From the NCBI RefSeq assembly GCF_016026235.1, contig NZ_CP065613.1: 64,000 nucleotides of DNA; one strand, given 5' to 3'. Under the pieces are notes generated by a model. That model saw nothing but the letters and a program-made list of their open reading frames with translations, did not search any database and was not told the origin of the DNA. The position numbers and the translations under genes were made by a program. Position 1 is the first letter of the stretch, and each line of letters starts with the position of its first letter. Positions 2,005 through 22,645 of this stretch are shown in pieces. The stretch is from Escherichia coli (GTDB taxonomy: Bacteria; Pseudomonadota; Gammaproteobacteria; Enterobacterales; Enterobacteriaceae).

Positions 2005-3216
2005 ATGTCGACTCGTACCCCTTCATCATCTTCATCCCGCCTGATGCTGACCATCGGGCTTTGTTTTTTGGTCGCTCTGATGGAAGGGCTGGATCTTCAG
2101 GCGGCTGGCATTGCGGCGGGTGGCATCGCCCAGGCTTTCGCACTCGATAAAATGCAAATGGGCTGGATATTCAGCGCCGGAATACTCGGTTTGCTACCCG
2201 GCGCGTTGGTTGGCGGAATGCTGGCGGACCGTTATGGTCGCAAGCGCATTTTGATTGGCTCAGTTGCGCTGTTTGGTTTGTTCTCGCTGGCAACGGCGAT
2301 TGCCTGGGATTTCCCCTCACTGGTCTTTGCGCGGCTGATGACCGGTGTCGGGCTGGGGGCGGCGTTGCTGAATCTTATCGCCCTGACGTCTGAAGCCGCG
2401 GGTCCACGTTTTCGTGGGACGGCAGTGAGCCTGATGTATTGCGGTGTTCCCATTGGCGCGGCGCTGGCGGCGACACTGGGTTTCGCGGGGGCAAACTTAG
2501 CATGGCAAACGGTGTTTTGGGTAGGTGGTGTGGTGCCGTTGATTCTGGTGCCGCTATTAATGCGCTGGCTGCCGGAGTCGGCGGTTTTCGCTGGCGAAAA
2601 ACAGGCTGCGCCACCACTGCGTGCGTTATTTGCGCCAGAAACGGCAACCGCGACGCTGCTGCTGTGGTTGTGTTATTTCTTCACTCTGCTGGTGGTCTAC
2701 ATGTTGATCAACTGGCTACCGCTGCTTTTGGTGGAGCAAGGATTCCAGCCATCGCAGGCGGCAGGGGTGATGTTTGCACTGCAAATGGGTGCGGCGAGCG
2801 GGACGTTAATGTTGGGCGCATTGATGGATAAGCTGCGTCCAGTAACCATGTCGCTACTGATTTATAGCGGCATGTTAGCTTCGCTGCTGGCGCTGGGAAC
2901 GGTGTCGTCATTTAACGGTATGTTGCTGGCGGGATTTGTCGCGGGGTTGTTTGCGACAGGTGGGCAAAGCGTTTTGTATGCCCTGGCACCGTTGTTTTAC
3001 AGTTCGCAGATCCGCGCAACAGGTGTGGGAACAGCCGTGGCGGTAGGGCGTCTGGGGGCTATGAGCGGTCCGTTACTGGCCGGGAAAATGCTGGCATTAG
3101 GCACTGGCACGGTCGGCGTAATGGCCGCTTCTGCACCGGGTATTCTTGTTGCTGGGTTGGCGGTGTTTATTTTGATGAGTCGGAGATCAAGAATGCAGCC
3201 GTGTGCCGATGCCTGA
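2005..3216 (+). CDS. mhpT: 3-(3-hydroxyphenyl)propionate MFS transporter
   Basis: ORF 1936..3216; internal ATG at 2005 (MSTRTPSSS...) gives the 403 aa expected for MhpT; MFS-like hydrophobic sequence. Confidence 0.9.
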   Translation: MSTRTPSSSSSRLMLTIGLCFLVALMEGLDLQAAGIAAGGIAQAFALDKMQMGWIFSAGILGLLPGALVGGMLADRYGRKRILIGSVALFGLFSLATAIAWDFPSLVFARLMTGVGLGAALLNLIALTSEAAGPRFRGTAVSLMYCGVPIGAALAATLGFAGANLAWQTVFWVGGVVPLILVPLLMRWLPESAVFAGEKQAAPPLRALFAPETATATLLLWLCYFFTLLVVYMLINWLPLLLVEQGFQPSQAAGVMFALQMGAASGTLMLGALMDKLRPVTMSLLIYSGMLASLLALGTVSSFNGMLLAGFVAGLFATGGQSVLYALAPLFYSSQIRATGVGTAVAVGRLGAMSGPLLAGKMLALGTGTVGVMAASAPGILVAGLAVFILMSRRSRMQPCADA

Positions 3217-3317
3217 CGCGCCTTATTAAGCAGGGGCGAAAGGGACTTGCCCCCAATACACCCACGGCGTTTACAGGTATACTCGCTAAAAATTATTCAG
3301 CGGGTTTGGAAACAAAG

Positions 3318-3857
3318 ATGGCAAAACTTACCTTACAAGAGCAGTTGCTCAAAGCAGGATTAGTCACCAGCAAAAAAGCGGCGAAGGTCGAGAGAACGGC
3401 GAAAAAATCGCGTGTTCAGGCGCGTGAAGCTCGGGCGGCGGTAGAAGAAAATAAAAAGGCACAGCTTGAGCGTGATAAACAGCTTAGCGAACAGCAAAAA
3501 CAAGCGGCGTTGGCGAAAGAATATAAAGCTCAGGTGAAGCAGCTTATTGAAATGAACCGGATCACCATTGCCAATGGCGATATTGGTTTTAACTTCACTG
3601 ACGGCAATCTGATTAAGAAGATTTTTGTCGATAAGCTCACACAGGCGCAGTTGATTAATGGTCGTCTGGCGATTGCCCGCTTGTTGGTCGATAACAATAG
3701 CGAAGGTGAATACGCAATTATTCCCGCCAGCGTTGCCGATAAAATTGCTCAGCGTGATGCCAGCAGTATTGTGTTGCACAGCGCGCTCAGTGCCGAAGAG
3801 CAGGATGAAGACGACCCGTATGCCGACTTCAAAGTGCCTGATGATTTGATGTGGTAA
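3318..3857 (+). CDS. yaiL: DUF2058 family protein YaiL
   Basis: ORF 3201..3857; ATG at 3318 (MAKLTLQEQLLKAG...) gives 179 aa matching YaiL as recalled. Confidence 0.85.
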   Translation: MAKLTLQEQLLKAGLVTSKKAAKVERTAKKSRVQAREARAAVEENKKAQLERDKQLSEQQKQAALAKEYKAQVKQLIEMNRITIANGDIGFNFTDGNLIKKIFVDKLTQAQLINGRLAIARLLVDNNSEGEYAIIPASVADKIAQRDASSIVLHSALSAEEQDEDDPYADFKVPDDLMW

Positions 3858-3880
3858 ACATAGATAAGTCGTGCGCAGAT

Positions 3881-3966
3881 GCCTGATGCGACGCTTACGC
3901 GTCTTATCATGCCTACGGCTCATGGGCGAAATGTAGGCCGGATAAGGCGTTCACGCCGCATCCGGC
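3881..3966. repeat. REP pair (BIME) in the yaiL-frmB intergenic region
   Basis: GCCTGATGCGACGC...GTCTTATCATGCCTAC and GTAGGCCGGATAAGGCG...CGCCGCATCCGGC palindromes read directly. Confidence 0.8.
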
Positions 3967-3981
3967 AGTTGTGCACTATTA

Positions 3982-4815
3982 TCAACGCATATTCAGTTTA
4001 TTGGCGTGGTAGGCAATATGCTCGCCAATAAAACTGGAGACAAAATAATAGCTGTGGTCGTAACCCTCGTGATAACGGATTAACGTCTTGATATTCATCT
4101 CCTGGCAGATCTTTTCAAGATTTGGAGTCCGCAGCTGTTCCGCGTAAAAATCATCACTCAACCCCTGATCAACCATGATTTCCGCAACGCGTTGACCTTG
4201 TGAAATAAGACTCACCGGGTCGTAATACAACCAGGCATCTTTATTTTCACCAAGATATGCAGCAAAGGCTTGCTGTCCCCACGGTACTTGCGATGGGGAG
4301 ACAATGGGCGAAAACGCCGAGACGCTGGCATATTCATCTGGGTTACGTAACGCCAGCACCAGCGCGCCCAGCCCGCCCATAGAATGACCAGAGATAGACT
4401 TTTTGGCCGTTGCCGGAAAATGATGCATCACTAAATCCGGCAGCTCGTTGCGGATATAGTCATACATTTTGTAATGTTCATTCCACGGCGCTTGCGTCGC
4501 GTTCAGGTAAAACCCGGCACCTTGCCCGAGATCGTAACGGTCGGCATCTGCGACATGACTGCCTCGCGGACTGGTGTCCGGCGCAACAACAATAATGTTG
4601 TGCTCAGCCGCGTAACGCTGCATCCCCGATTTAGTAATGAAATTCTGCTCGTTGCAGGTCAGGCCTGAAAGCCAGTACAGCACCGGCAATTTTTCATTCG
4701 CGGCTTTTGGTGGGAGATAGACGCCGACATTCATTTCACATTTCAGTGATGCGGAATAATGCCGATACACATTTTGCCAGCCGCCAAAGCTGGCATGTTT
4801 TTCAATGAGTTCCAT
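3982..4815 (-). CDS. frmB: S-formylglutathione hydrolase
   Basis: 277-aa ORF; esterase motif GHSMGG; position downstream of frmA. Confidence 0.95.
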   Translation of the reverse strand: MELIEKHASFGGWQNVYRHYSASLKCEMNVGVYLPPKAANEKLPVLYWLSGLTCNEQNFITKSGMQRYAAEHNIIVVAPDTSPRGSHVADADRYDLGQGAGFYLNATQAPWNEHYKMYDYIRNELPDLVMHHFPATAKKSISGHSMGGLGALVLALRNPDEYASVSAFSPIVSPSQVPWGQQAFAAYLGENKDAWLYYDPVSLISQGQRVAEIMVDQGLSDDFYAEQLRTPNLEKICQEMNIKTLIRYHEGYDHSYYFVSSFIGEHIAYHANKLNMR

Positions 4816-4907
4816 CAGTCATTATCTCACGGTTAATCCCCCGGACGGCTGCCCGGGGAGAGTATTAAGAACCCCGTCTGAAGTGGACGGGGTAAACCAG
4901 CGGGAAA

Positions 4908-6047
<1,140 letters not shown>

Positions 6048-6051
6048 TCAG

Positions 6052-6327
6052 CTATTTAAGATAGGCACGAACCAGTTCAATAGTGTCGTCAACGGATTGG
6101 CTGACTTCGCGGCTGTAGCAGTCATTTCGGTCAAACGTTTCCCGGATATGGCTTTCAAGCACTTCTGCCATCAGCCCATTAGCCGCGCCCCGAACGGCAG
6201 CGATCTGTTGGAGTATGGCACGGCATTCGGCATCACCCTCCAGCGACCGTTCCAGAGCATCAATCTGCCCTCGAATACGACGAACTCGAGTAAGGACCTT
6301 TTTCTTCTCTTCCGGAGTACTGGGCAT
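6052..6327 (-). CDS. frmR: formaldehyde-responsive transcriptional repressor (CsoR/RcnR family)
   Basis: ORF 6052..6348; ATG at 6327 gives 91 aa ([12 protein letters not shown]...) matching FrmR; first gene of frmRAB. Confidence 0.9.
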
Positions 6328-6353
6328 TTCGCACCTCATCATCTGCACGCAAT

Positions 6354-6402
6354 ATACTATAGGGGGGTATGCTATATGTCAATACATACCCCCCTATAGT
6401 AT
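6354..6402. promoter_or_regulatory. putative frmRAB operator: perfect 17-bp inverted repeat ATACTATAGGGGGGTAT (15 bp spacer) ATACCCCCCTATAGTAT
   Basis: Arms at 6354..6370 and 6386..6402 are exact reverse complements; sits directly upstream of the frmR start on the minus strand. Confidence 0.7.
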
Positions 6403-6486
6403 ATAACACTGGAGAATAATTGTTGTCCGAAGCCTAACCAGGTGAACGGTCCCTCAAGACAGATGGGGACCGTTTATGTGCTATTT

Positions 6487-7533
6487 TTATGCCGCATCCG
6501 CTAAAACAAACATCCCGTAAGGATGGATTTCGAGGTAATAGTGCTCACCAATATCGGGCTGTAAACGGGTGGCGTTTACTTGTAATAAAATCTCCTGTCC
6601 ATGCCACTCTACGGTCACTTCGTACTGCGGCCCCATGTAGGCGACATGGCGAATAACACAACGCTGACTCTCTTCGCCGTGATTGCTTAAGGTGATGGCT
6701 TCCGGGCGAACGCCGACGGTGCCGCTACCTTGCGCCGGGAAATGCGCCGCGCGCGGCAGGCGATAACCGTAGATATCGACATACTCTTCGCTAAAGTTCG
6801 CCGGGAACAGGTTGGCGTCGCCCATAAAACTTGCCATAAAGCGGGAGGCTGGCTGACGATAGAGCTCCTGCGGTGAGCCAATCTGCATGATGTGACCTTT
6901 ATTCATCACCAGCACAGTGTCGGACACCGCGAAAGCTTCACTTTGATCGTGAGTGACGTAGAGCGACGTGATATTAAACTGCTTTTGCAGCTCGCGGATC
7001 TTATCGCGCATACTGCGGCGCAGGTTGGCATCGAGGTTACTTAACGGCTCATCAAACAGCAGCACCTTTGGCTTGAGGATCAACGCGCGGGCCAGTGCCA
7101 CTCGCTGTTGCTGACCACCGGAAATCTGATCGACATAGCGGTCCTCGAAGCCTTCCAGATCCACCATTGCCAGCGCCTCCTTCACCCGCTGTTTCACTTC
7201 GCTACGCGAGACGCCAAGCATCTTCAGCCCGTAGCCAACGTTTTCACCCAGCGACATATGCGGGAACAGAGCGTATGACTGAAACACCATGCAGATATCG
7301 CGCTGTTGAATGGAACGATGCGTGACATCTTCGCCATCAATAAAAATTTGCCCTTCGCTCGGTTTTTCCAGCCCGGCAACCAGACGCAAAATGGTGGTTT
7401 TGCCACAGCCGGAAGGACCGAGCAGCGTCACCATTTGCCCTTGTGGAATGGTGAGATTGATATTGTCGATAACCGTATTACTGCCGAATCGTTTAGTGAC
7501 GTTGCGCAGTTCAACAAAATTTTTCTGACTCAT
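6487..7533 (-). CDS. afuC: ABC transporter ATP-binding protein, AfuC-like (start may instead be 7545)
   Basis: Walker [13 protein letters not shown] signature [10 protein letters not shown]-terminal TOBE-like region; GGAG lies 6 nt upstream of the ATG at 7533; an alternative ATG at 7545 overlaps the afuB stop by 1 nt. Confidence 0.8.
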
Positions 7534-7544
7534 ATTGCGCTCCA

Positions 7545-9623
7545 TTACGCCTGGTTTTTGGCTTTAGAACGGGAGATACGAGCTTCTCCGATCAGCCAGT
7601 CAAAGAGGAAAATAATCGCCAGCATCACCACGATCAGAATCGAACCATAGGCGATGGCTACGCCATATTCGCCGTCTTCAACGCGGTTAAGAATGTAGGC
7701 GGTTGCCACGCGGGTGTCCGGCGTGACGAGAAAGACGATGGCGCTGACCGTCGTGATGGCCCGCACAAAGCTGTAGATCAGGGCCGAGAGAATGGCCGGA
7801 CGCAGCAGCGGCAGTAAAATGTGGGTTATGGTTCGCAAGGAACCCGCGCGCAGGCTGAGTGAGGCTTCATCCAGCGATTTGTCGATCTGCCCCAGACCCG
7901 CAATCCCGGCGCGAATACCCACCGGAACGTTACGCATCACCATCGAGATAATCACAATTGCCGCCGTTCCGGTGAGATAAACCGGAGCGCTGTTAAAGGC
8001 AAGAATATACGAAACGCCCGCCACCGTACCCGGTACGGCAAAGCACAGCATGGTGGTGAACTCGATGGTCTTTTTGCCTTTGAATTGTTGACGCACCACC
8101 ACCCAGGCGATGAGCAGGCCAAAGATAGCGGTAATGGGAGCGGCAATCCCGGCGTAGAGCAGGGTATCCAGCAGTGAAGGCCACGCGCCGTCGCTCATTC
8201 CCTGACCAAATAGCTTGATAAAGTTATCCAGCGTCAGGGTGTAGTCCACGCCCCAGTTCACCGTGAAGCTGCCGTAGAAAATGCTGCCGTAGAGCAGGGC
8301 GTTAAAGGCAATCCATATCGCAAGTATGGCGACCACGCTCCACACCAGGGTGACCGGTAGCGGCTGGACGTCGCCACGGTAGGATTTGCCGGAAACCGTG
8401 ACGTAAGAGCGTTTACCAATCCACATATACTGGATGCAGAACACCAGCAGCGAGAACAGCAGCAGGAAAGCGCCAAGGGTGCTGGCGGCCTGATAATCCA
8501 GCTGCGAGCCGGTAATATAGAAGTAAATTTGCGTCGCCAGTACGTCGAAGTTACCGCCAAGTACCAGCGGGTTACTGAAATCAGCCAGTGACTGTACCAC
8601 GACGATTAAAAAGGCATTGGCGAGTGCGGGCTTCAACAACGGCACAAACACGCCGTTAAAGGTTTGCCAGCGGCTGGCGCGCAGGGTGTAGGAGGCCTCT
8701 TCCAGCGAGGGATGAATGGTTTTAATGGCCCCGTCGAGGATCATAAATGCCATTGGCGTGAATGCCAGAACCTGTGCCAGCCAGATCCCGGTAAAACCGT
8801 ACAGCCAGTTGGTGTTGGTCAGCCCAAACCACTCCACCATAAATTCCGTAACATAGCCGGAGCGCCCCATCATGAGCGTCACGCCTAAGCCGACCACAAA
8901 CGGTGGCGTAACGATGGGCAAAATGGAAAAGATGCGACCAATAATGGCGCTGCGTTTAGCGATGCGCGTGGTATAAATCGCCAGCACCAGGCCGAAGAAA
9001 GTACAGCCTATCCCCACCGCTATCGACAAGACGATAGAGTTGACGATCACCTGAACAATATGTGCCTGCGAGAGCACGGTCATAAACGCCAGCGGGGCGA
9101 ACTCTCCCGCGTCGTTGGTGAACATCGGGATAAAAATGGCGATGCTCGGCCAGACGATAAAAATGCCAATCAGCGCCACAATCGCAATCAGTGAGCCGAT
9201 CACGAAGCGGTCGCCACCCAGCCATTCGAGGCGGGTTAAGGCCAGCGTCATAATCGCGCCTAGTTCGACAAACAGCACGATGGCGGCGTAGCCTAAACCG
9301 CGTCCAACCACGGTGGCGCTGATGACGATAAACGCCATACAGAGCAATGCCCAGCCGGCATCGAAATAATGACGGCTACGTTGTTCGCGCGTGGCCTCAC
9401 TAAACGGGCGGACCAGCAACAGGCTCGGGAGTAAATACCACAGCCAGCTGATATTAAAATGCGACCAGCCGTACGCCCCGAGGATCTCATCACTCGTGGA
9501 CTCCAGCAGGCCATAATCGAGGCTCCAGCTCGGCAACAGTATAAATGCCAGCCAGCCCAGCAAAACCCAAAGGAAAATCGCATCCCGCTTTTTCACGGGA
9601 TGGAGTGCAAGTGTCTGTGACAT
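7545..9623 (-). CDS. afuB: ABC transporter permease with duplicated transmembrane domains, AfuB/FbpB-like
   Basis: 692-aa highly hydrophobic ORF with two-lobed permease organisation; lies between the binding-protein and ATPase genes. Confidence 0.85.
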
Positions 9624-9691
9624 AGCAGTTCCGGTATGGTTGGCCGGGGCAGGCGTTTGTGCTGCACCCGGAAAATACGCCTAATGCGGGT

Positions 9692-10723
9692 TTATTTACC
9701 CATCTTCACTTCGCTGACCCATTTATTAATCAATGCCTTACGAACATCCGTGGAACCATATTTATCCATGTCGTAGTTGATTAATTTCAGGTCGTCGAGC
9801 TTCAGTGAATTTGGCGACGTTTCGGCGGTGGTATTGGTCAGGATCTGATAAGACTTCCCTTTCTTCCACGCCAGTTCCTGAGCTTCTTTTGATAATACCC
9901 AGTCCACAAACAGTTTGGCGTTGTCGAGGTTGCGCGCGCCTTTCAGAATGCTGACGCCGCCAATTTCGTAGCCTGTACCTTCACACGGGGAAATCAACTC
10001 CAGCGGCGCGCCCTGTTCTTTTTCCAGCGAGTAGTCATGCAGGAAGCCAATACCAATCGCCGTTTCGCCACGGGCGGCGTTACGTGCCGGGGCTATGCCT
10101 GATTTGGTGTACTGAGAGACGTTGGCGTTCAGTTGTTTTAGATAATCAAAGGCCTGATCTTCCCCCCACAGCTGCGCAAAAGTAGCCAGGGCGGTGTAGG
10201 CAGTACCGGAACTTTGCGGATCGGCAATTTGAATTTCGCCTTTATATTCCGGTTTGGTGAGATCTTTCCAGCACTTCGGCACCGGCAGGTTTTTCTCTTT
10301 CAGACGATCGGTGTTTACGCCAAAACCGAGGATCCCCACATAAACGGCAGAGGACAGATTCCCTTTCACTTTTGCCGGATCGCGGAATTTCTCCATGATC
10401 TGCTCAAGGTTAGGGGATTTATACGCCTGTAGCAGGCCCATCTCGCCAGCCTGCGATTGTGGGTCTAAAGTGCCGCCGTACCAGACGTCAGCCTGGGGGT
10501 TTTTCTTTTCAGCATCGACTTTTGCCAGGGTGCTTCCGGAACCGTTGCGGATAAACGAGGTTTTTACATCATATTTCTCGCCAAACGCTTTGGTTTCGGC
10601 CTCACACATTTCATTGGTGGCGCTGCAATAGACCACCAGCCGGCCTTTTGCCTGCGCGGCACCCGTTAAAGTCGCCAGCGCAACGGCAGAAGCAATCAGA
10701 GTAGAGGTAAAGGTCATTTTCAT
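9692..10723 (-). CDS. afuA: periplasmic substrate-binding protein, AfuA/FbpA-like (proposed sugar-phosphate binding)
   Basis: ORF 9692..11050; internal ATG at 10723 gives MKMTFTSTLIASAVALATLTGAAQA signal peptide; the upstream extension overlaps the neighbouring gene and is spurious. Confidence 0.85.
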   Translation of the reverse strand: MKMTFTSTLIASAVALATLTGAAQAKGRLVVYCSATNEMCEAETKAFGEKYDVKTSFIRNGSGSTLAKVDAEKKNPQADVWYGGTLDPQSQAGEMGLLQAYKSPNLEQIMEKFRDPAKVKGNLSSAVYVGILGFGVNTDRLKEKNLPVPKCWKDLTKPEYKGEIQIADPQSSGTAYTALATFAQLWGEDQAFDYLKQLNANVSQYTKSGIAPARNAARGETAIGIGFLHDYSLEKEQGAPLELISPCEGTGYEIGGVSILKGARNLDNAKLFVDWVLSKEAQELAWKKGKSYQILTNTTAETSPNSLKLDDLKLINYDMDKYGSTDVRKALINKWVSEVKMGK

Positions 10724-12036
10724 TGTTTTATCCTTCGAGCGTGAGTGGTGGTGATGCCCGCCATCAGTAACGGCATCAGCAGTAAACCCATAAGTACTGC
10801 GGCGACCGAGAGTAAACTGAACATTCCCGGCCAGCCGTAGCGTTCGATGACCAGCGACAGCGGCCAGCCTGCCAGCGCTGCGCCAAGGTAAGCGAACAGG
10901 CCGAGAAATCCGGTGATTGAACCCGCCGCAGCTTTGTGCCCACACTCCACCGCCGCAAGTCCAATCAGCATTTGTGGGCCAAAGACGAAAAAGCCCACGG
11001 TAAAAAAGCACACTGCCAGCAGAGCGTAGTGATGAACCGGTGCCAGCCACAGTGCGGCGACTGACACCATCAACCCCAACGTGAACAGCAAAATCATTGG
11101 CGCTCGTTGCCCGCTAAACAGCAAATCCGATCCCCATCCGGCAAATAACGCGCCGAGTAAGCCGCCCACTTCAAACAGCATTACCGTGGCGTTGGCGCTG
11201 AGCAGGTTGACACCGTGGCTTTCCGTCAGCCAGATATTGCCCCAGTCGTTAAGCGCAATCCGGATCACATAAACCAGTACATAAGAGACGCCCAGTAGCC
11301 AGATCAGCGGATTTTGCAGCATGGTGGTGCGCAACATTTGCCACAGCCCCATCGGCGGACTTTGTTGTTCCTGACGTAACTCCAGCGGATCGTGACGCCA
11401 GTGACCAACTGTCGGTAATCCCTCTTCCTGGGGCGTGCCTTTGAGTTGTAGCGTTAACCAGATCCCTAATGCCATGCTGATTATCCCCGGTGTCAGCATC
11501 GCGGCCTGCCAGCCCCACCAGTGGGCGGCAAAGGCGCTAATCAGCGGAATAATCGCTCCGCCAATGTTGATCGACATATTCCAGCAGCCCCACCAGAAAC
11601 CGCGCTCATTGCGTGAGTACCAGTGGGTCAGCAAGCGGGCACACGGTGGCCATCCCCAGCCCTGAAAAAAACCGTTCAGTGTCCAGACCACAAGCAGAAG
11701 CGTAAGTGATTCGCCAAAGGCAAACACCACGTTCAATAACCCGGTGGCGAACAAGCCGACGCCCATAAAACCGCGTTGTCCGTGGCTGTCATGCCACAGT
11801 CCGGCGGTAAATTTCGACAATCCGTAGCTGAGATAAAACAGCGAACCCAGCAGGCCAATGTCGCCTTTATCCAGTCCGAGGTCGGTTTGTAGCGCCGGAA
11901 GGACGTAATTCACGCTTTTTCGCGTCAGATAAAATGCGGCGTAGCCAATAATCATGCACATCAGCAATCGCGGACGTAATGTCCGGTAGCATTGATCAAT
12001 TTCTCTCGCTGAACGCGCGTGCATGGTTGTCTCCAT
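10720..12036 (-). CDS. MFS protein, UhpC-like sugar-phosphate sensor/transporter paralog
   Basis: 438 aa; clear similarity to K-12 UhpC recalled from memory (e.g. FFQGWGWPPCARLLTHWYSRNERG versus UhpC FFQGWGSPVCARLLTAWYSRTERG); TGA stop overlaps the afuA ATG. Confidence 0.85.
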   Translation of the reverse strand: METTMHARSAREIDQCYRTLRPRLLMCMIIGYAAFYLTRKSVNYVLPALQTDLGLDKGDIGLLGSLFYLSYGLSKFTAGLWHDSHGQRGFMGVGLFATGLLNVVFAFGESLTLLLVVWTLNGFFQGWGWPPCARLLTHWYSRNERGFWWGCWNMSINIGGAIIPLISAFAAHWWGWQAAMLTPGIISMALGIWLTLQLKGTPQEEGLPTVGHWRHDPLELRQEQQSPPMGLWQMLRTTMLQNPLIWLLGVSYVLVYVIRIALNDWGNIWLTESHGVNLLSANATVMLFEVGGLLGALFAGWGSDLLFSGQRAPMILLFTLGLMVSVAALWLAPVHHYALLAVCFFTVGFFVFGPQMLIGLAAVECGHKAAAGSITGFLGLFAYLGAALAGWPLSLVIERYGWPGMFSLLSVAAVLMGLLLMPLLMAGITTTHARRIKQ

Positions 12037-12108
12037 GTTGCTGACTATATGAAAATGAAAGTGAAAGGGGATGAGAGAAAATCCGGGATACCTAAGACTT
12101 TTTCCTGG

Positions 12109-13650
12109 TTATCCGGCGATTTGTTGCAAAAATGTGGGCAAGTTAACAATTACCCGCGTGCCGTGCTGTTTTTCGAGCGTTAAGTCGCCGCCCAGGGCGC
12201 TGACGCGCTCACGCATCCCCTGAATGCCAAATCCGGCCATTTTCCCGCTGGCGATCCCCACACCGTTGTCGCTGACTTCCAGATGCAATACCTCTCCCTG
12301 CTGGCGCAGGATAATCGTCACTTCGCTGGCTTCGGCGTGTTTACAGATGTTATTGAGCAACTCCTGCAATAACCGATACAAGGTAAAGCGCACCGTTTCG
12401 TTTTCTGGTGTGGAGTTCAGTTGATAGGCAAACTGGCAATGAATGCCGCGTTCACTAAAGGCAAATTCATTAATCAGATGCAGCAACGCTTCGCGAAATG
12501 TCAGTTCATCAAGCGCGGGAGGCCGCAACTGGCGCAGCAATTGGCGGGTGGAGAGATGAATGCGGCGGGCGAGCTCATTGATTTGGCTGGCTGCGGATTG
12601 AATTTGCGCCGGATCACGCGCCCGCTTCACCAGTTGCGACTGGATCTGAATGGCGGTGATGTTCTGACCGATTTCGTCGTGCAGCTCTCGCGCCAGGTTT
12701 TTTCGCGTGTCCTCCTCGGTGTGGATCAGCTTTTCCGCCAATGCCCGCCGCGCTGCCAGCTCGGCCTCCAGCCGTTGTCGGTAATGGTGCAGGTTTAGCG
12801 CCAGATGTTGCTGGCGACTGATGGCAATGCCCAGGCCAATTCCCAGCAAGGCCTGGGTCGCGAGGAAAATCTCCAGCTCCACCAGGTTACTAAAGCCCAC
12901 GCCAATCTGGCGGGCGATGGTGATCATCATGCTGCCCAAAAGCCCGGAGAGTACGCCACCTTGCCAGCCAAATTTCCACGCCATCACCACATTGGGCAAA
13001 AAGACCACGATCAACAGCAGACGTTCAATTTCAGGTGACAGCACCATCTGAGTGCCGATACCAATAATAAAAAACAGGCTACACCAGATGATTAAAGAGG
13101 TACGCAAGGGGGGATTATGCGTATCGAGTCCCAGGAGCTGGTAGCGATGCTGCTGGCGCAGAAACTCAAAGATAAGATAGACAAACGGCGTCAGTAATAC
13201 GCCGCCGGTAAATGAGGTCAAACCCGGCAGCATTATTGGGCCTGACATAAAAGGGGAGAGCAGGGCGGTATTCAACAATGAAGCTGCCGTGACAGTGGCT
13301 AACAGCAACGTCAGACGCTGCCAGTAAAGTGGAAAACGGTGCCAGAAGTTTTGCGCGAGGAGGACAGGAAACAGGCTAATAACCGGCGTTGCCAGCATGA
13401 GATAACCGTTCAATAGCTGTTCACTATGGAGCCAGAACATCATCAGCAAAGGGGGGAGCACCAACGCAGGCCAGTAGCGGCGAGAGAGCAAAATAACAAG
13501 GGCGAGATAAACTCCCTGCGGGAGAAACAACACCGCCTGTTGACCGTTATTGGTCAGATAAAAGCTGAGCGTCCACAGCATCAGCCAGCCGGTTCCCCAG
13601 GCCAGCACAATAAACAGCGAAATCACCCAATGACGAAGATTGCGCGACAT
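12109..13650 (-). CDS. sensor histidine kinase, UhpB-like (membrane N-terminal domain, HisKA_3, HATPase)
   Basis: 513 aa; N-terminal polytopic region, conserved WKFGWQGG and RELHDEIGQ H-box region similar to UhpB. Confidence 0.85.
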   Translation of the reverse strand: MSRNLRHWVISLFIVLAWGTGWLMLWTLSFYLTNNGQQAVLFLPQGVYLALVILLSRRYWPALVLPPLLMMFWLHSEQLLNGYLMLATPVISLFPVLLAQNFWHRFPLYWQRLTLLLATVTAASLLNTALLSPFMSGPIMLPGLTSFTGGVLLTPFVYLIFEFLRQQHRYQLLGLDTHNPPLRTSLIIWCSLFFIIGIGTQMVLSPEIERLLLIVVFLPNVVMAWKFGWQGGVLSGLLGSMMITIARQIGVGFSNLVELEIFLATQALLGIGLGIAISRQQHLALNLHHYRQRLEAELAARRALAEKLIHTEEDTRKNLARELHDEIGQNITAIQIQSQLVKRARDPAQIQSAASQINELARRIHLSTRQLLRQLRPPALDELTFREALLHLINEFAFSERGIHCQFAYQLNSTPENETVRFTLYRLLQELLNNICKHAEASEVTIILRQQGEVLHLEVSDNGVGIASGKMAGFGIQGMRERVSALGGDLTLEKQHGTRVIVNLPTFLQQIAG

Positions 13651-14279
13651 TAATGCCCCGCCAGCAGATGGTGGTCGAGCGCAAAATGTACCAGTTCAAT
13701 GGTGCTATGGCAGTTCAGTTTTCCCAGCACATTGGCGCGATGCACATGTACCGTTTTATGACTGAGTTCGAGTTTAAAGGCGATCTCTTTAACGCTGTCT
13801 CCTTTGACCAGTAAATCAAACACTTCACGTTCTCGTGGGGTGAGAATTTCCAGCGCCTGGGCGGGTTGCCCGCCGCCGCGTAAAGCCCGAATCGCATCGG
13901 CACAGAGATAATGCCCGCCCAGCCCGACCGAGCGCACCGCCTGCACTAACTCTTCCGGCCCACAGCGTTTGGTTAAATACCCGCTGGCACCGGCATCCAG
14001 CGCGCTTTGCACAAAGGTTGGCGCGTCATAAATGCTAAGAATAATGGCGCGAAATTGCGGTTTTTGTGCACGCAGGCGCTTAAGCAAACTGAGGCCGTTT
14101 TCGTCCGGCATGGCAATATCAATGACGGCAACATTGACGTCATCACGGATTAATGCCGACCATGCCTGCGCGGCACTACTGTACTGACCAATGACCTCCA
14201 GATCGTCTTCCAGAGAGAGTAATTGTGCGAAGCCAGAGCGCACCACCACATGGTCATCCACCAGCACTACCCGAATCAT
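13650..14279 (-). CDS. response regulator, UhpA-like (NarL/LuxR family)
   Basis: 209 aa; MIRVVLVDDHVVVRSGFAQLL receiver domain and C-terminal LuxR HTH (KTVHVHRANVLGKL) closely parallel UhpA. Confidence 0.85.
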   Translation of the reverse strand: MIRVVLVDDHVVVRSGFAQLLSLEDDLEVIGQYSSAAQAWSALIRDDVNVAVIDIAMPDENGLSLLKRLRAQKPQFRAIILSIYDAPTFVQSALDAGASGYLTKRCGPEELVQAVRSVGLGGHYLCADAIRALRGGGQPAQALEILTPREREVFDLLVKGDSVKEIAFKLELSHKTVHVHRANVLGKLNCHSTIELVHFALDHHLLAGH

Positions 14280-14581
14280 ACTTTTCTTCTCTTATTATCT
14301 AATTCTCCTATCATGCATCACGGCGCGGCGCTGGCAATCAACCAGCGACAGATATGGAATGGATGTAACAAAATGGCAATAATTTGCCGGAGCGCGCACA
14401 TCTTATCTGGCTTGTGAACCGGCGGGATACGTTCGCCAAAACCGCAAAATGCGCAAACTCGCTAACCATTGCCGATTTTTTTCTAAAAACGCTTTGTTCT
14501 TAACAAGACCTTTTAATTCCTTTATCAAACTGACCCGCAACGAAATACTGCTCCCATAACAAGACAGGGGAGCAGACAATC

Positions 14582-15544
14582 ATGGCAATTTCATCGCGTA
14601 ACACACTTCTTGCCGCACTGGCATTCATCGCTTTTCAGGCACAGGCGGTGAACGTCACCGTGGCGTATCAAACCTCAGCCGAACCGGCGAAAGTGGCTCA
14701 GGCCGACAACACCTTTGCTAAAGAAAGCGGAGCAACCGTGGACTGGCGTAAGTTTGACAGCGGAGCCAGCATCGTGCGGGCGCTGGCTTCAGGCGACGTG
14801 CAAATCGGCAACCTCGGTTCCAGCCCGTTAGCGGTTGCAGCCAGCCAACAGGTGCCGATTGAAGTCTTCTTGCTGGCGTCAAAACTGGGTAACTCCGAAG
14901 CGCTGGTGGTAAAGAAAACTATCAGCAAACCGGAAGATCTGATTGGCAAACGCATCGCCGTACCGTTTATCTCCACCACCCACTACAGCCTGCTGGCGGC
15001 GCTGAAACACTGGGGCATTAAACCCGGGCAAGTGGAGATTGTGAACCTGCAGCCGCCCGCGATTATCGCTGCCTGGCAGCGGGGAGACATTGATGGTGCT
15101 TATGTCTGGGCACCGGCGGTTAACGCCCTGGAAAAAGACGGCAAGGTGCTGACCGATTCTGAACAGGTCGGGCAGTGGGGCGCGCCAACGCTGGACGTTT
15201 GGGTGGTGCGCAAAGATTTTGCCGAGAAACATCCTGAGGTCGTGAAAGCGTTCGCTAAAAGCGCCATCGATGCTCAGCAACCGTACATTGCTAACCCAGA
15301 CGTGTGGCTGAAACAGCCGGAAAACATCAGCAAACTGGCGCGTTTAAGCGGCGTGCCTGAAGGTGACGTTCCGGGGCTGGTGAAGGGGAATACCTATCTG
15401 ACGCCGCAGCAACAAACGGCAGAACTGACCGGACCGGTGAACAAAGCGATTATCGACACCGCGCAGTTTTTGAAAGAGCAGGGCAAGGTCCCGGCTGTAG
15501 CGAATGATTACAGCCAGTACGTTACCTCGCGCTTCGTGCAATAA
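14582..15544 (+). CDS. tauA: taurine ABC transporter periplasmic binding protein
   Basis: 320-aa ORF with signal peptide; first gene of the tauABCD cluster. Confidence 0.95.
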   Translation: MAISSRNTLLAALAFIAFQAQAVNVTVAYQTSAEPAKVAQADNTFAKESGATVDWRKFDSGASIVRALASGDVQIGNLGSSPLAVAASQQVPIEVFLLASKLGNSEALVVKKTISKPEDLIGKRIAVPFISTTHYSLLAALKHWGIKPGQVEIVNLQPPAIIAAWQRGDIDGAYVWAPAVNALEKDGKVLTDSEQVGQWGAPTLDVWVVRKDFAEKHPEVVKAFAKSAIDAQQPYIANPDVWLKQPENISKLARLSGVPEGDVPGLVKGNTYLTPQQQTAELTGPVNKAIIDTAQFLKEQGKVPAVANDYSQYVTSRFVQ

Positions 15545-15556
15545 AAGGAGGCGCAG

Positions 15557-16324
15557 ATGCTGCAAATCTCTCATCTTTACGCCGATTATGGCGGCAAACC
15601 GGCACTGGAAGATATCAACCTGACGCTGGAAAGCGGCGAACTACTGGTGGTGCTGGGGCCGTCCGGCTGCGGTAAAACCACCCTGCTGAATCTGATTGCC
15701 GGTTTTGTGCCTTATCAGCATGGCAGCATTCAACTGGCGGGTAAGCGTATTGAGGGACCGGGAGCAGAGCGTGGCGTAGTTTTTCAGAATGAAGGGCTAC
15801 TACCGTGGCGCAATGTACAGGACAACGTGGCGTTCGGCCTGCAATTGGCAGGTATAGAGAAAATGCAGCGACTGGAAATCGCGCACCAGATGCTGAAAAA
15901 AGTGGGGCTGGAAGGCGCAGAAAAACGCTACATCTGGCAGCTTTCCGGCGGTCAACGTCAGCGGGTGGGCATTGCCCGCGCGCTGGCGGCGAATCCCCAG
16001 CTGTTATTACTCGACGAACCGTTTGGTGCGCTGGACGCCTTCACCCGCGACCAGATGCAAACCCTGCTGCTGAAACTCTGGCAGGAGACGGGCAAGCAGG
16101 TGCTGTTGATTACCCACGATATAGAAGAAGCGGTGTTTATGGCGACTGAACTGGTTCTGCTTTCATCCGGCCCTGGACGTGTGCTGGAGCGGCTGCCGCT
16201 CAACTTTGCTCGCCGCTTTGTTGCGGGAGAGTCGAGCCGCAGCATCAAGTCCGATCCACAATTCATCGCCATGCGCGAATATGTTTTAAGCCGCGTATTT
16301 GAGCAACGGGAGGCGTTCTCATGA
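15557..16324 (+). CDS. tauB: taurine ABC transporter ATP-binding protein
   Basis: 255 aa; Walker [10 protein letters not shown], signature LSGGQRQRV. Confidence 0.95.
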
Positions 16325-17148
16325 GTGTGCTCATTAATGAAAAACTGCATTCGCGGCGGCTGAAATGGCGCTGGCCGCTCTCGCGTCAGGTGACCTTAAG
16401 CATTGGCACGTTAGCGGTTTTACTCACTGTATGGTGGACGGTGGCGGCGCCGCAACTGATTAGCCCGCTGTTTTTGCCGCCGCCGCAACAAGTACTGGCA
16501 AAACTGCTCACCATTGCCGGACCGCAGGGATTTATGGACGCCACGCTGTGGCAGCATCTGGCAGCCAGCCTGACGCGCATTGTGCTGGCGCTACTCGCGG
16601 CGGTGTTGATCGGCATTCCGGTCGGGATCGCCATGGGGCTAAGCCCGACGGTGCGCGGCATTCTGGATCCGGTAATCGAACTTTATCGTCCGGTGCCGCC
16701 GCTGGCTTATTTACCACTGATGGTGATCTGGTTTGGTATTGGCGAAACCTCGAAGATCTTACTGATCTATTTAGCGATTTTTGCGCCGGTGGCGATGTCG
16801 GCGCTGGCAGGGGTGAAAAGCGCGCAGCAGGTTCGCATTCGTGCCGCCCAGTCGCTGGGTGCCAGCCGTGCGCAGGTGCTGTGGTTTGTCATTTTGCCCG
16901 GCGCGCTGCCGGAAATCCTCACCGGATTACGCATTGGTCTGGGGGTGGGCTGGTCTACCCTGGTAGCGGCGGAGCTGATTGCCGCGACGCGCGGTTTAGG
17001 ATTTATGGTTCAGTCAGCGGGTGAATTTCTCGCGACTGACGTGGTGCTGGCGGGGATCGCGGTGATTGCGATTATCGCCTTTCTTTTAGAACTGGGTTTG
17101 CGCGCGTTACAGCGCCGACTGACGCCCTGGCATGGAGAAGTACAATGA
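16321..17148 (+). CDS. tauC: taurine ABC transporter permease
   Basis: 275-aa hydrophobic ORF; 4-nt overlap with tauB and with tauD. Confidence 0.95.
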
Positions 17149-17996
17149 GTGAACGTCTGAGCATTACCCCGCTGGGGCCGTATATTGGCGCACAAATTTC
17201 GGGTGCCGACCTGACGCGCCCGTTAAGCGATAATCAGTTTGAACAGCTTTACCATGCGGTGCTGCGCCATCAGGTGGTGTTTCTGCGCGATCAAGCTATT
17301 ACACCGCTGCAGCAACGCGCGCTGGCCCAGCGTTTTGGCGAACTGCATATTCACCCTGTTTACCCTCATGCCGAAGGGGTTGACGAGATCATCGTGCTGG
17401 ATACCCATAACGATAATCCGCCAGATAACGACAACTGGCATACCGATGTGACATTTATTGAAACGCCACCCGCAGGGGCGATTCTGGCAGCGAAAGAGTT
17501 ACCTTCGACCGGCGGCGATACGCTCTGGACCAGCGGTATTGCGGCCTATGAGGCGCTCTCTGTTCCCTTCCGCCAACTGCTGAGCGGGCTGCGTGCGGAG
17601 CATGATTTTCGTAAATCGTTCCCGGAATACAAATACCGCAAAACAGAGGAGGAACATCAACCCTGGCGCGAGGCGGTCGCGAAAAACCCGCCGTTGCTAC
17701 ATCCGGTGGTGCGAACGCATCCGGTGAGCGGTAAACAGGCGCTGTTTGTGAATGAAGGCTTTACTACGCGAATTGTTGATGTGAGCGAGAAAGAGAGCGA
17801 AGCCTTGTTAAGTTTTTTGTTTGCCCATATCACCAAACCGGAGTTTCAGGTGCGCTGGCGCTGGCAACCAAATGATATTGCGATTTGGGATAACCGCGTG
17901 ACCCAGCACTATGCCAATGCCGATTACCTGCCACAGCGACGGATTATGCATCGGGCGACGATTCTTGGGGATAAACCGTTTTATCGGGCGGGGTAA
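17145..17996 (+). CDS. tauD: taurine dioxygenase (alpha-ketoglutarate dependent)
   Basis: 283 aa; TauD/TfdA family sequence (HTDVTF motif). Confidence 0.95.
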
Positions 17997-18000
17997 TACG

Positions 18001-19699: not shown

Positions 19700-22645
<2,946 letters not shown>

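Follow-up and report, generated by a model that had tools for sequence, protein, structure and literature searches.

The stretch of DNA analysed here, which we refer to as the window, comprises 64,000 nucleotides of Escherichia coli (NCBI RefSeq assembly GCF_016026235.1, contig NZ_CP065613.1), and its frmR and tauA genes are separated by a block of six genes encoding a two-component regulatory pair, a sensor-like protein of the major facilitator superfamily (MFS), and an ATP-binding cassette (ABC) importer. Listing and translation of the open reading frames (ORFs) placed all six between frmR and tauA in the same orientation on the minus strand, as had been proposed in an earlier note on the same DNA (hereafter the original prediction). 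The features of the locus, in plain terms, are as follows.

6420-14443: accessory block of 8.0 kb, equivalent to O-island 20 (blastn junctions)
13650-14279, minus strand: fusR (Z0463), UhpA-like response regulator of the NarL/FixJ type, receiver aspartate D54
12109-13650, minus strand: fusK (Z0462), UhpB-like histidine kinase with an eight-transmembrane MASE1 domain, H-box H324
10720-12024, minus strand: z0461 (Z0461), UhpC-type MFS sensor-like protein (NF008661)
9692-10723, minus strand: afuA (Z0460), periplasmic sugar-phosphate binding protein (match to 4R72-4R75)
7545-9623, minus strand: afuB (Z0459), fused double permease of 692 aa (CysT/ModB/PhnU2 models)
6487-7533, minus strand: afuC (Z0458), ABC ATPase (NCBIfam NF008513; start as in RefSeq)
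12044-12108, minus strand: predicted regulated promoter of z0461-afuABC (conservation and likeness to uhpT)
14310-14370, minus strand: predicted fusRK promoter, with -35 TTGCCA at 14337-14332 and -10 CATGAT at 14315-14310
6445-6474, minus strand: hairpin 13 nt past the afuC stop
6052-6327, minus strand: frmR, left flank
14582-15544, plus strand: tauA, right flank

The six-gene block is almost certainly O-island 20 (OI-20; Z0458-Z0463) of E. coli O157:H7, with FusKR, Z0461, and AfuABC, the OI-20 name being that used by Sit et al. 2015 (PMC4546632). Strain EDL933 carries the same six genes in the same order at the same frmR-tauA site and is 99.7% identical to the window over 9692-14279, the stretch from afuA to fusR, and DNA identity to O157:H7 strain Vac_07.1 is 99.1% over the whole block. 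At the protein level the differences from the O157:H7 copies amount to no residue in AfuA, one each in Z0461 and FusR, two each in FusK and AfuC, and six in AfuB. Published reagents also map onto the block: the fusR lambda-Red primers Z0463lambdaredP1 and Z0463lambdaredP2 (PMC5120142, Table S2) match 14243-14303 with one mismatch and 13594-13650 with two mismatches, respectively, the latter ending at the fusK start codon, so that this deletion pair exactly brackets the uhpA-like gene. The supplement of PMC6199705 equates Z0459 with WP_000084161.1, Z0462 with WP_000089287.1, and Z0463 with WP_000621918.1, and it is these proteins that the O157:H7 annotation places between frmR and tauA. Because primers, accessions, and residue counts agree, the uhpA-like gene is fusR, the uhpB-like gene fusK, the uhpC-like gene z0461, and afuABC corresponds to Z0460-Z0458. 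The window is not itself an O157:H7 genome, its closest relatives being strain FDAARGOS_943 and a porcine enterotoxigenic E. coli (ETEC). The block, the importer, and the two-component pair have thus already been published; the original finding, which had itself been given as probably already described, is correct and not new.

We defined the edges of the block by blastn. Against strain S12, a verified empty site in which frmR lies directly beside tauA, the block extends over 6420-14443 and takes the place of ~75 bp of sequence resembling repetitive extragenic palindromic (REP) elements, and against the yaiO-type strain 52F4 it extends over 6420-14543. The limits first proposed, 6440-14560, lie within ~20-120 bp of these junctions and so gave the right location but not the exact ends. 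The statement that no tRNA, integrase, or transposase marks the boundaries held up, as a tRNA scan found none within 3000-18000 and neither mobility gene is annotated at either block edge in three annotated genomes; a search of 5800-15000 with Rfam at gathering thresholds likewise returned no RNA family. For flanking direct repeats the junction sequences were inspected by eye only, with no systematic search. The G+C content of the block (0.538) shows no compositional shift from that of the left flank (0.539). An integrative mobile genomic island was considered and rejected, since the locus has no tRNA, no annotated mobility gene at its edges, and normal G+C, and since the same genes stand beside tauA in 30 other species, as described below.

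The importer genes could be assigned with the help of a well-characterised relative. AfuC scored 699.6 bits (cut-off 496) against NCBIfam model NF008513, a family named after E. coli FbpC/AfuC, both permease halves of AfuB matched CysT/ModB/PhnU2 models, and afuA is followed by the fused double permease and the ATPase, which is the gene arrangement of this importer. AfuA matched the structures of Actinobacillus pleuropneumoniae AfuA with glucose-6-phosphate (G6P), fructose-6-phosphate (F6P), or sedoheptulose-7-phosphate (S7P) (4R72-4R75) at E = 1.5e-169, compared with E-110 for a pyridoxal phosphate (PLP)-binding relative and E-12 or weaker for true ferric-binding proteins. The A. pleuropneumoniae protein, of which three crystal structures with sugar-phosphate ligands were determined, binds G6P at 24 nM; binding is abolished by H205A, D206A, and E229A, and that of G6P is weakened by mutation of S37 or T150 (PMC4546632). 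The counterparts of H205, D206, and E229 in the window protein are H229, D230, and E253, and those of S37 and T150 are S62 and T174, so that all five ligand-contacting residues are conserved.

The same study names G6P, F6P, and S7P as AfuABC substrates in its abstract, reports that on G6P and F6P an E. coli strain deleted for uhpT can be rescued with afuABC, and doubts the iron specificity of the original iron-uptake (aroB) complementation (PMC4546632). It further reports that the Citrobacter rodentium orthologue has the same activity and that an afuA deletion is impaired in competition and transmission, the C. rodentium AfuABC belonging to an orthologous island with >83% identity to that of enterohaemorrhagic E. 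coli (EHEC) (PMC4546632). We found no substantive difference between the transporters of A. pleuropneumoniae and C. rodentium and that of the window, which has a close AfuA homologue with all ligand residues together with the fused permease and the ATPase. By homology, then, the AfuABC of the window would be an importer of G6P, F6P, and S7P, and the statement in the original prediction that AfuABC had been reported as a hexose/heptose-phosphate importer proved accurate. The regulation of AfuABC is not addressed in PMC4546632 beyond a mention of the neighbouring FusKR.

The three remaining genes belong to the families first assigned to them. Z0461 passed the UhpC model NF008661 with 589.4 bits (cut-off 564), and the UhpB and UhpA models are the best ones for fusK and fusR, respectively, at scores below their equivalog cut-offs; in FusK, Pfam recognises MASE1 (5e-60), HisKA_3 (2e-15), and HATPase_c (4e-13), an architecture identical to that of UhpB. 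Z0461 is 52% identical to K-12 UhpC and 31% identical to UhpT. The arginines R46 and R275 of UhpT, which we take to be an essential organophosphate-binding pair, both have equivalents in Z0461 (R35 and R255), as is typical of the organophosphate:phosphate antiporter (OPA) family of MFS proteins, and these are invariant in 79/79 orthologues. At the positions of UhpT D388 and K391, Z0461 has residues of the UhpC type and not of the UhpT type, and an alignment with K-12 UhpC, UhpT, and the 79 orthologues revealed a five-residue deletion common to Z0461 and UhpC. Such features would be more in keeping with a sensor of a phosphorylated ligand than with a fucose transporter.

Only one conserved spacer of any size exists in the cassette, that between fusK and z0461 (84 bp in the window), and it contains a footprint of fixed geometry. 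Immediately after the fusK stop, at 12108-12091, stands an inverted repeat, CCAGGAAAAAGTCTTAGG, with the consensus CYAGGAA-N3-TTCCTRG, which we found in 76/76 orthologous intergenic regions and in no further copy elsewhere in the cassette. The motif TCTCAT (12076-12071 in the window) follows the repeat at a distance, from start to start, of 32 nt in 71/75 loci, and the hexamer that begins 27 nt after the start of TCTCAT reads TAnnnT in 74/75 (TATAGT, 12049-12044, in the window). A GGAG Shine-Dalgarno sequence follows at 12033-12030, 9-11 nt past this -10 hexamer and ahead of the conserved z0461 start, ATG 12024 (434 aa), which is also the start annotated in FDAARGOS_943. There is no -35 match in this promoter, and the centre of the repeat would fall at about -63. 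RefSeq places the z0461 start of O157:H7 at an upstream ATG (12036; 438 aa), a codon that is not conserved in other genera and would sit at or before the transcription start, predicted near 12037.

This layout closely resembles that of the K-12 uhpT promoter, which we located in MG1655 by means of the CRP site at -103 given in PMC5352689. There the -10 hexamer TACAAT occupies -12 to -7, TCTCAG starts 27 nt before it, no -35 match is present, and inverted repeats are centred near -63 (GGCAAAAC/GTTTTGCC) and near -53 (CCAGG-N5-CCTGG). The comparison of UhpA boxes draws on the K-12 sequence itself together with this CRP position; a search for a UhpA half-site consensus, CCTGRR, gave nothing relevant. 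The two promoters are therefore alike in a repeat near -63, a TCTCA motif 27 nt before the -10 element, and the want of a -35 match, and the z0461 promoter looks like an activator-dependent promoter of the uhpT type that would drive z0461-afuABC as one unit, such that the sensor gene would be under its own control.

Several features downstream bear on the extent of this predicted unit. The start codon of afuA shares bases with the stop codon of z0461 (ATGA), an AAGGA Shine-Dalgarno sequence lies within z0461, and the gap between the two genes is -4 to 20 nt in most representative genera and up to 160 nt in Yersinia. The ~160-nt spacers of Yersinia nurmii (locus L084, 9802-10000) and Y. aldovae (locus L087, 9468-9657) are without a copy of the inverted repeat. 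Among genera, the spacer between afuA and afuB ranges from 53 to 191 nt, and an alternative ATG of afuC at 7545 overlaps the afuB stop. Past afuC, the hairpin at 6445-6474 (centroid fold -17 kcal/mol, z = -1.55, no U-tract) is a weak candidate that might possibly mark the 3' end of the operon. According to public RNA-seq tables, expression of z0461 and of afuB goes up together in the contents of the bovine intestine.

The positions of the predicted fusRK promoter are conserved across 76 orthologous loci; a consensus scan for promoters and terminators gave no more matches than shuffled sequence, and only the fusR promoter match among them is backed by conservation. Upstream of it, an element TTTTGTTAC-N7-TTNCAT (TGTTAC...TNCAT) at 14370-14352 is kept in 76 loci from many genera. 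As it is unlike the z0461 repeat, this element may be the target of another regulator; repression of fusKR by QseB and QseF has been reported. A palindrome beside it, GGCAAATTATTGCC (14375-14388), is poorly conserved. Outside the block, 15 bp from its left edge, a long near-perfect palindrome, ATACTATAGGGGGGTATG...CATACCCCCCTATAGTATA, at 6352-6404 just upstream of frmR overlaps a strong match to a promoter (TTGACA-17-TAGTAT) and is retained in each of the three alleles of the site; presumably it is the FrmR operator.

The resemblance to K-12 UhpABC-UhpT extends to the whole cassette. Both systems have the order regulator, MASE1 kinase, UhpC-type MFS sensor, and transporter, and in both the stop of the regulator gene overlaps the start of the kinase gene (fusR and fusK here). 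The transporters differ, the cassette having an ATP-driven ABC importer and K-12 Uhp the antiporter UhpT, and the original observation that an ABC importer replaces uhpT behind a UhpABC-like module was confirmed, as no uhpT follows; UhpA-dependent control of uhpT in the strict sense thus has no counterpart in the block. The promoters are also placed differently: in K-12, a gap of 9 nt separates uhpB from uhpC and the promoter comes after uhpC, whereas in the cassette it precedes the uhpC-like gene, which would bring the sensor inside the regulated unit and let it feed back on its own abundance. The regulator, the kinase, and the sensor share a global identity of only 51%, 37.5%, and 52%, respectively, with their K-12 Uhp counterparts.

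To place the cassette in E. coli, we took counts from 5426 complete genomes. The block is present in 519 of them, including O157:H7 (EDL933), O55:H7, O145, an O78 strain, and porcine ETEC, and a variant of ~94% identity occurs in 68 E. coli genomes. A yaiO-yaiX-yaiP block is found in 4815/5426 genomes, a yaiO-yaiS block filling the site in most E. coli, and the OI-20 block and the yaiO-type block are close to mutually exclusive; these counts uphold the original view that the six genes are accessory in E. coli and missing from K-12-like genomes. A 131-bp empty-junction probe matched 595 genomes at coverage of at least 80%, a figure incompatible with 519 plus 4815 of 5426; as the probe evidently also matches some occupied sites, we claim at most ~92 genomes with neither block. 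In many E. coli that do not carry the island, a decayed second afuC with the 3' end of afuB (85.6% DNA identity) lies beside mmuPM, truncated by insertion sequence IS1 (for example in strain H7, NZ_CP010171.1, locus L088, 7001-8407), and this remnant is the reason why 'fbpC' is annotated in K-12-like genomes. It differs from the island in occupying another locus and in having neither afuA nor the sensor genes.

We then examined other species by scanning a bacterial collection of one genome per species for AfuA and analysing the best 80 of 348 relatives. All of these 80 belong to Enterobacterales, and the order fusR-fusK-z0461-afuA-afuB-afuC on one strand was recovered in each of the 74 loci among them that were long enough (74/74). 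Among the genera are Citrobacter, Klebsiella, Serratia, Buttiauxella, Rahnella, Erwinia, Pantoea, Yersinia, and Brenneria, and protein identities lie between 55% (FusK, Pantoea and Brenneria) and 98% (AfuA, Citrobacter). To our knowledge most of the cassette-bearing genera have no locus of enterocyte effacement (LEE), and the function common to these cassettes must therefore be local.

The position of the cassette is also shared with other genera. In 30 of the 80 species loci, those of Citrobacter, Klebsiella, Raoultella, Enterobacter, Leclercia, and relatives, tauA-tauB lies divergently beside fusR, as in E. coli, and frmRA is found in none. Its proteins are 88-98% identical to those of C. 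amalonaticus, and the flanking TauA (96%) and TauB (92%) fall in the same range; such flank-like divergence, together with normal G+C, speaks for a cassette of long standing and stable position, lost or replaced in most E. coli. The distribution thus has the look of an old enterobacterial locus that has been differentially retained or replaced, and not that of a recent foreign island. The term 'island' used in the original prediction is appropriate within E. coli; given that the cassette adjoins tauAB in other genera, an old locus is likelier than a foreign insertion.

Two statements in reviews bear on the same point. One describes FusKR as confined to O157:H7 (PMC11644481), which the presence of the genes in 519/5426 E. 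coli of several serotypes and in other Enterobacterales corrects, and another describes FusKR as possibly acquired from Enterococcus faecalis (PMC4810492), which does not fit the closest relatives that we found, namely Citrobacter and Klebsiella cassettes at the same chromosomal position.

From the gene order, the protein families, and the conserved promoter footprint we propose that the cassette as a whole works by a Uhp-like mechanism of six steps, an account towards which we lean on balance. First, fusR-fusK would be transcribed from its own sigma-70 promoter next to tauA. Second, Z0461 may detect a periplasmic organophosphate, probably G6P, F6P, or S7P, and pass the signal on to the MASE1 kinase FusK, much as UhpC signals to UhpB. 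Third, FusK would phosphorylate FusR, a phosphotransfer already demonstrated by others, on D54, and fourth, phosphorylated FusR (FusR-P) would bind the inverted repeat ~63 bp upstream of the promoter in the 84-bp spacer that has no -35 element. Fifth, FusR-P would thereby control a single z0461-afuABC transcript, in which the ATGA overlap may couple the translation of z0461 and afuA. Lastly, AfuA would capture periplasmic sugar phosphate for import by AfuB and AfuC at the expense of ATP. The second, fourth, and fifth steps are inferred, as is the sign of FusR control at z0461, for which we favour activation. For LEE-positive E. coli there are reports that this regulator also answers to fucose and represses ler, z0461, and the fuc genes, activities which in such strains would come in addition to the steps above.

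A further-reaching interpretation is one that we hold only tentatively, at a probability of roughly 40%. It states that FusK-FusR-Z0461 is at root a Uhp-type sugar-phosphate sensor which receives the input of FusK via Z0461 and activates z0461-afuABC from a uhpT-like promoter, that the cassette is an old Enterobacterales unit adjacent to tauABCD, retained by a minority of E. coli or regained by homologous exchange and not a recent pathogen island from a distant donor, and that in EHEC the sensing of fucose and the repression of the LEE arose by secondary co-option or are indirect.

The alternative that survives best is that the published EHEC model is complete, in which case FusK would sense L-fucose directly, FusR-P would repress ler, z0461, and the fuc operon, Z0461 would import fucose, and afuABC would be an independently controlled neighbour. 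This model is set out in reviews and original articles citing Pacheco et al. 2012, and these sources describe that FusK autophosphorylates with fucose and phosphorylates FusR and that FusR represses ler, hence the LEE (PMC11644481, PMC4810492, PMC5120142, PMC6199705), that FusR represses z0461 and the fuc genes (PMC11644481, PMC4810492, PMC6199705), that deletion of z0461 lowers fuc expression and impairs growth on fucose (PMC11644481, PMC4810492, PMC5120142, PMC6199705), and that Z0461 aids fucose import (PMC6199705, PMC11644481). Independent evidence from 2026 shows that fusKR is needed for fucose-dependent LEE repression, which is lost in a fusKR deletion (PMC12976359).

Most of these reports, namely fucose sensing by FusK, z0461 and fuc gene repression, fucose import through Z0461, and the fusKR-dependent LEE response, weigh against a Uhp-type sugar-phosphate system, as do several of our own results. 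FusK (381.7 bits with the UhpB model NF008649, cut-off 408) and FusR (193.4 bits with the UhpA model NF007685, cut-off 258) both fall short of equivalog status, a change of signal is plausible at the identity that separates FusK from K-12 UhpB, and the inverted repeat of the island is missing from the 31-bp FusR site that has been reported for the ler promoter. Within the searchable literature, moreover, we found no transcription start, footprint, or induction data for the z0461 promoter.

Against the fucose model as a complete account stand the following observations. Z0461 is an OPA-family protein of the UhpC type with invariant phosphate-binding arginines, and fucose has no phosphate; the cassette, afuABC included, is kept as a unit in all 74 loci, mostly in genera that we take to have no LEE; z0461 shares 4 nt with afuA, before which no further operator was seen; and a promoter with no -35 match and a repeat at about -63 has the layout of an activated promoter such as that of uhpT, not of a repressed one. 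We consequently regard the model in its complete form as rather unlikely. The Uhp-like account conflicts with the published fucose and repressor account in both sign and ligand, and the LEE phenotype of the latter has independent support. The two accounts could nevertheless be compatible if FusR has extra targets in LEE-positive strains, or if the effects of fucose are indirect or dependent on Z0461. Only Sit et al. 2015 names both afuA and fusK or uhpC among the literature that joins them, and no test of control of z0461-afuABC by sugar phosphate (G6P) was found in the searchable literature, with Pacheco et al. 2012 lying outside that search. The original prediction had treated the regulatory wiring as open, which does not hold for FusKR, partly studied with respect to fucose, the LEE, and repression, and does hold in that the direction of those studies is not the one suggested by the gene order.

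A second alternative concerns the repeat itself, which could be an RNA hairpin, either a terminator or a stabilising structure at the 3' end of an mRNA, and not an operator, all six genes then being transcribed from the fusR promoter or z0461-afuABC being constitutive. The repeat does begin right after the fusK stop, in E. coli it can be extended to a longer stem that is followed by AUUUUCUCUC, and in species with a perfect palindrome (Buttiauxella) it folds well (z = -2.0). Nonetheless, the fold is no better than that of shuffled sequence in the window (z = -0.6), Serratia (z = 0.0), or Yersinia (z = -0.3), a U-tract after the repeat is missing in most species, and positions 2 and 16 do not covary, C2 occurring with A16 in 51/76 loci. 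The primary sequence is conserved beyond pairing in >20 genera, and its constant distances to TCTCAT and to the -10 hexamer resemble those within a promoter, so that we consider this explanation improbable and the operator of a uhpT-type promoter the better description of the repeat. Finally, a ferric-iron importer, which the database names imply (fbpC, 'ferric ABC transporter ATP-binding protein', 'iron(III) binding protein') and for which it speaks that AfuC passes the so-named model NF008513 in agreement with RefSeq product names, is extremely improbable in view of the sugar-phosphate binding and the questioned aroB complementation of PMC4546632, of the match of AfuA at E-170 to sugar-phosphate structures against the far weaker ones to ferric-binding proteins, and of the conservation of every sugar- and phosphate-contacting residue, which together make the 'ferric' names misleading.

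Outside the block, the window is collinear with FDAARGOS_943, with 100% identity over 6000-15000 and 99.6-100% in other aligned segments, and some differences between the two were noted. The tauA gene is intact in the window (320 aa, 14582-15544) and a pseudogene with an internal stop in FDAARGOS_943, and the window does not have the IS1 (in aroM), IS2, and ISEc60/IS5 insertions of that strain. An intact ORF of 974 aa at 19700-22624 stands in the place of an autotransporter gene that IS2 interrupts in FDAARGOS_943, and it probably encodes an EhaB/YaiT-type autotransporter; K-12 has the yaiT pseudogene at this place. A tandem array at 1466-1911, in the mhpE-mhpT intergenic region, consists of 4.4 copies of a 101-bp unit (97% matches) with palindromes of the REP or bacterial interspersed mosaic element (BIME) type, and FDAARGOS_943 appears to differ there, as its blastn alignments are overlapping and offset.

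Annotation pipelines already name the parts of OI-20, the transporter misleadingly as ferric, and what the present analysis adds is the conserved order of the cassette, the ATGA overlap, the promoter footprint of fixed geometry, and the arginines of Z0461. In C. rodentium, AfuABC is known to contribute to colonisation and transmission, and FusKR has been proposed as an anti-virulence target. The residual question for the biology of these bacteria is whether FusKR is a fucose sensor, or whether it senses sugar phosphates via its UhpC-like partner and controls AfuABC; the mismatch between the architecture of the cassette and the published signal is the sole forward-looking element of this work, and it is testable.

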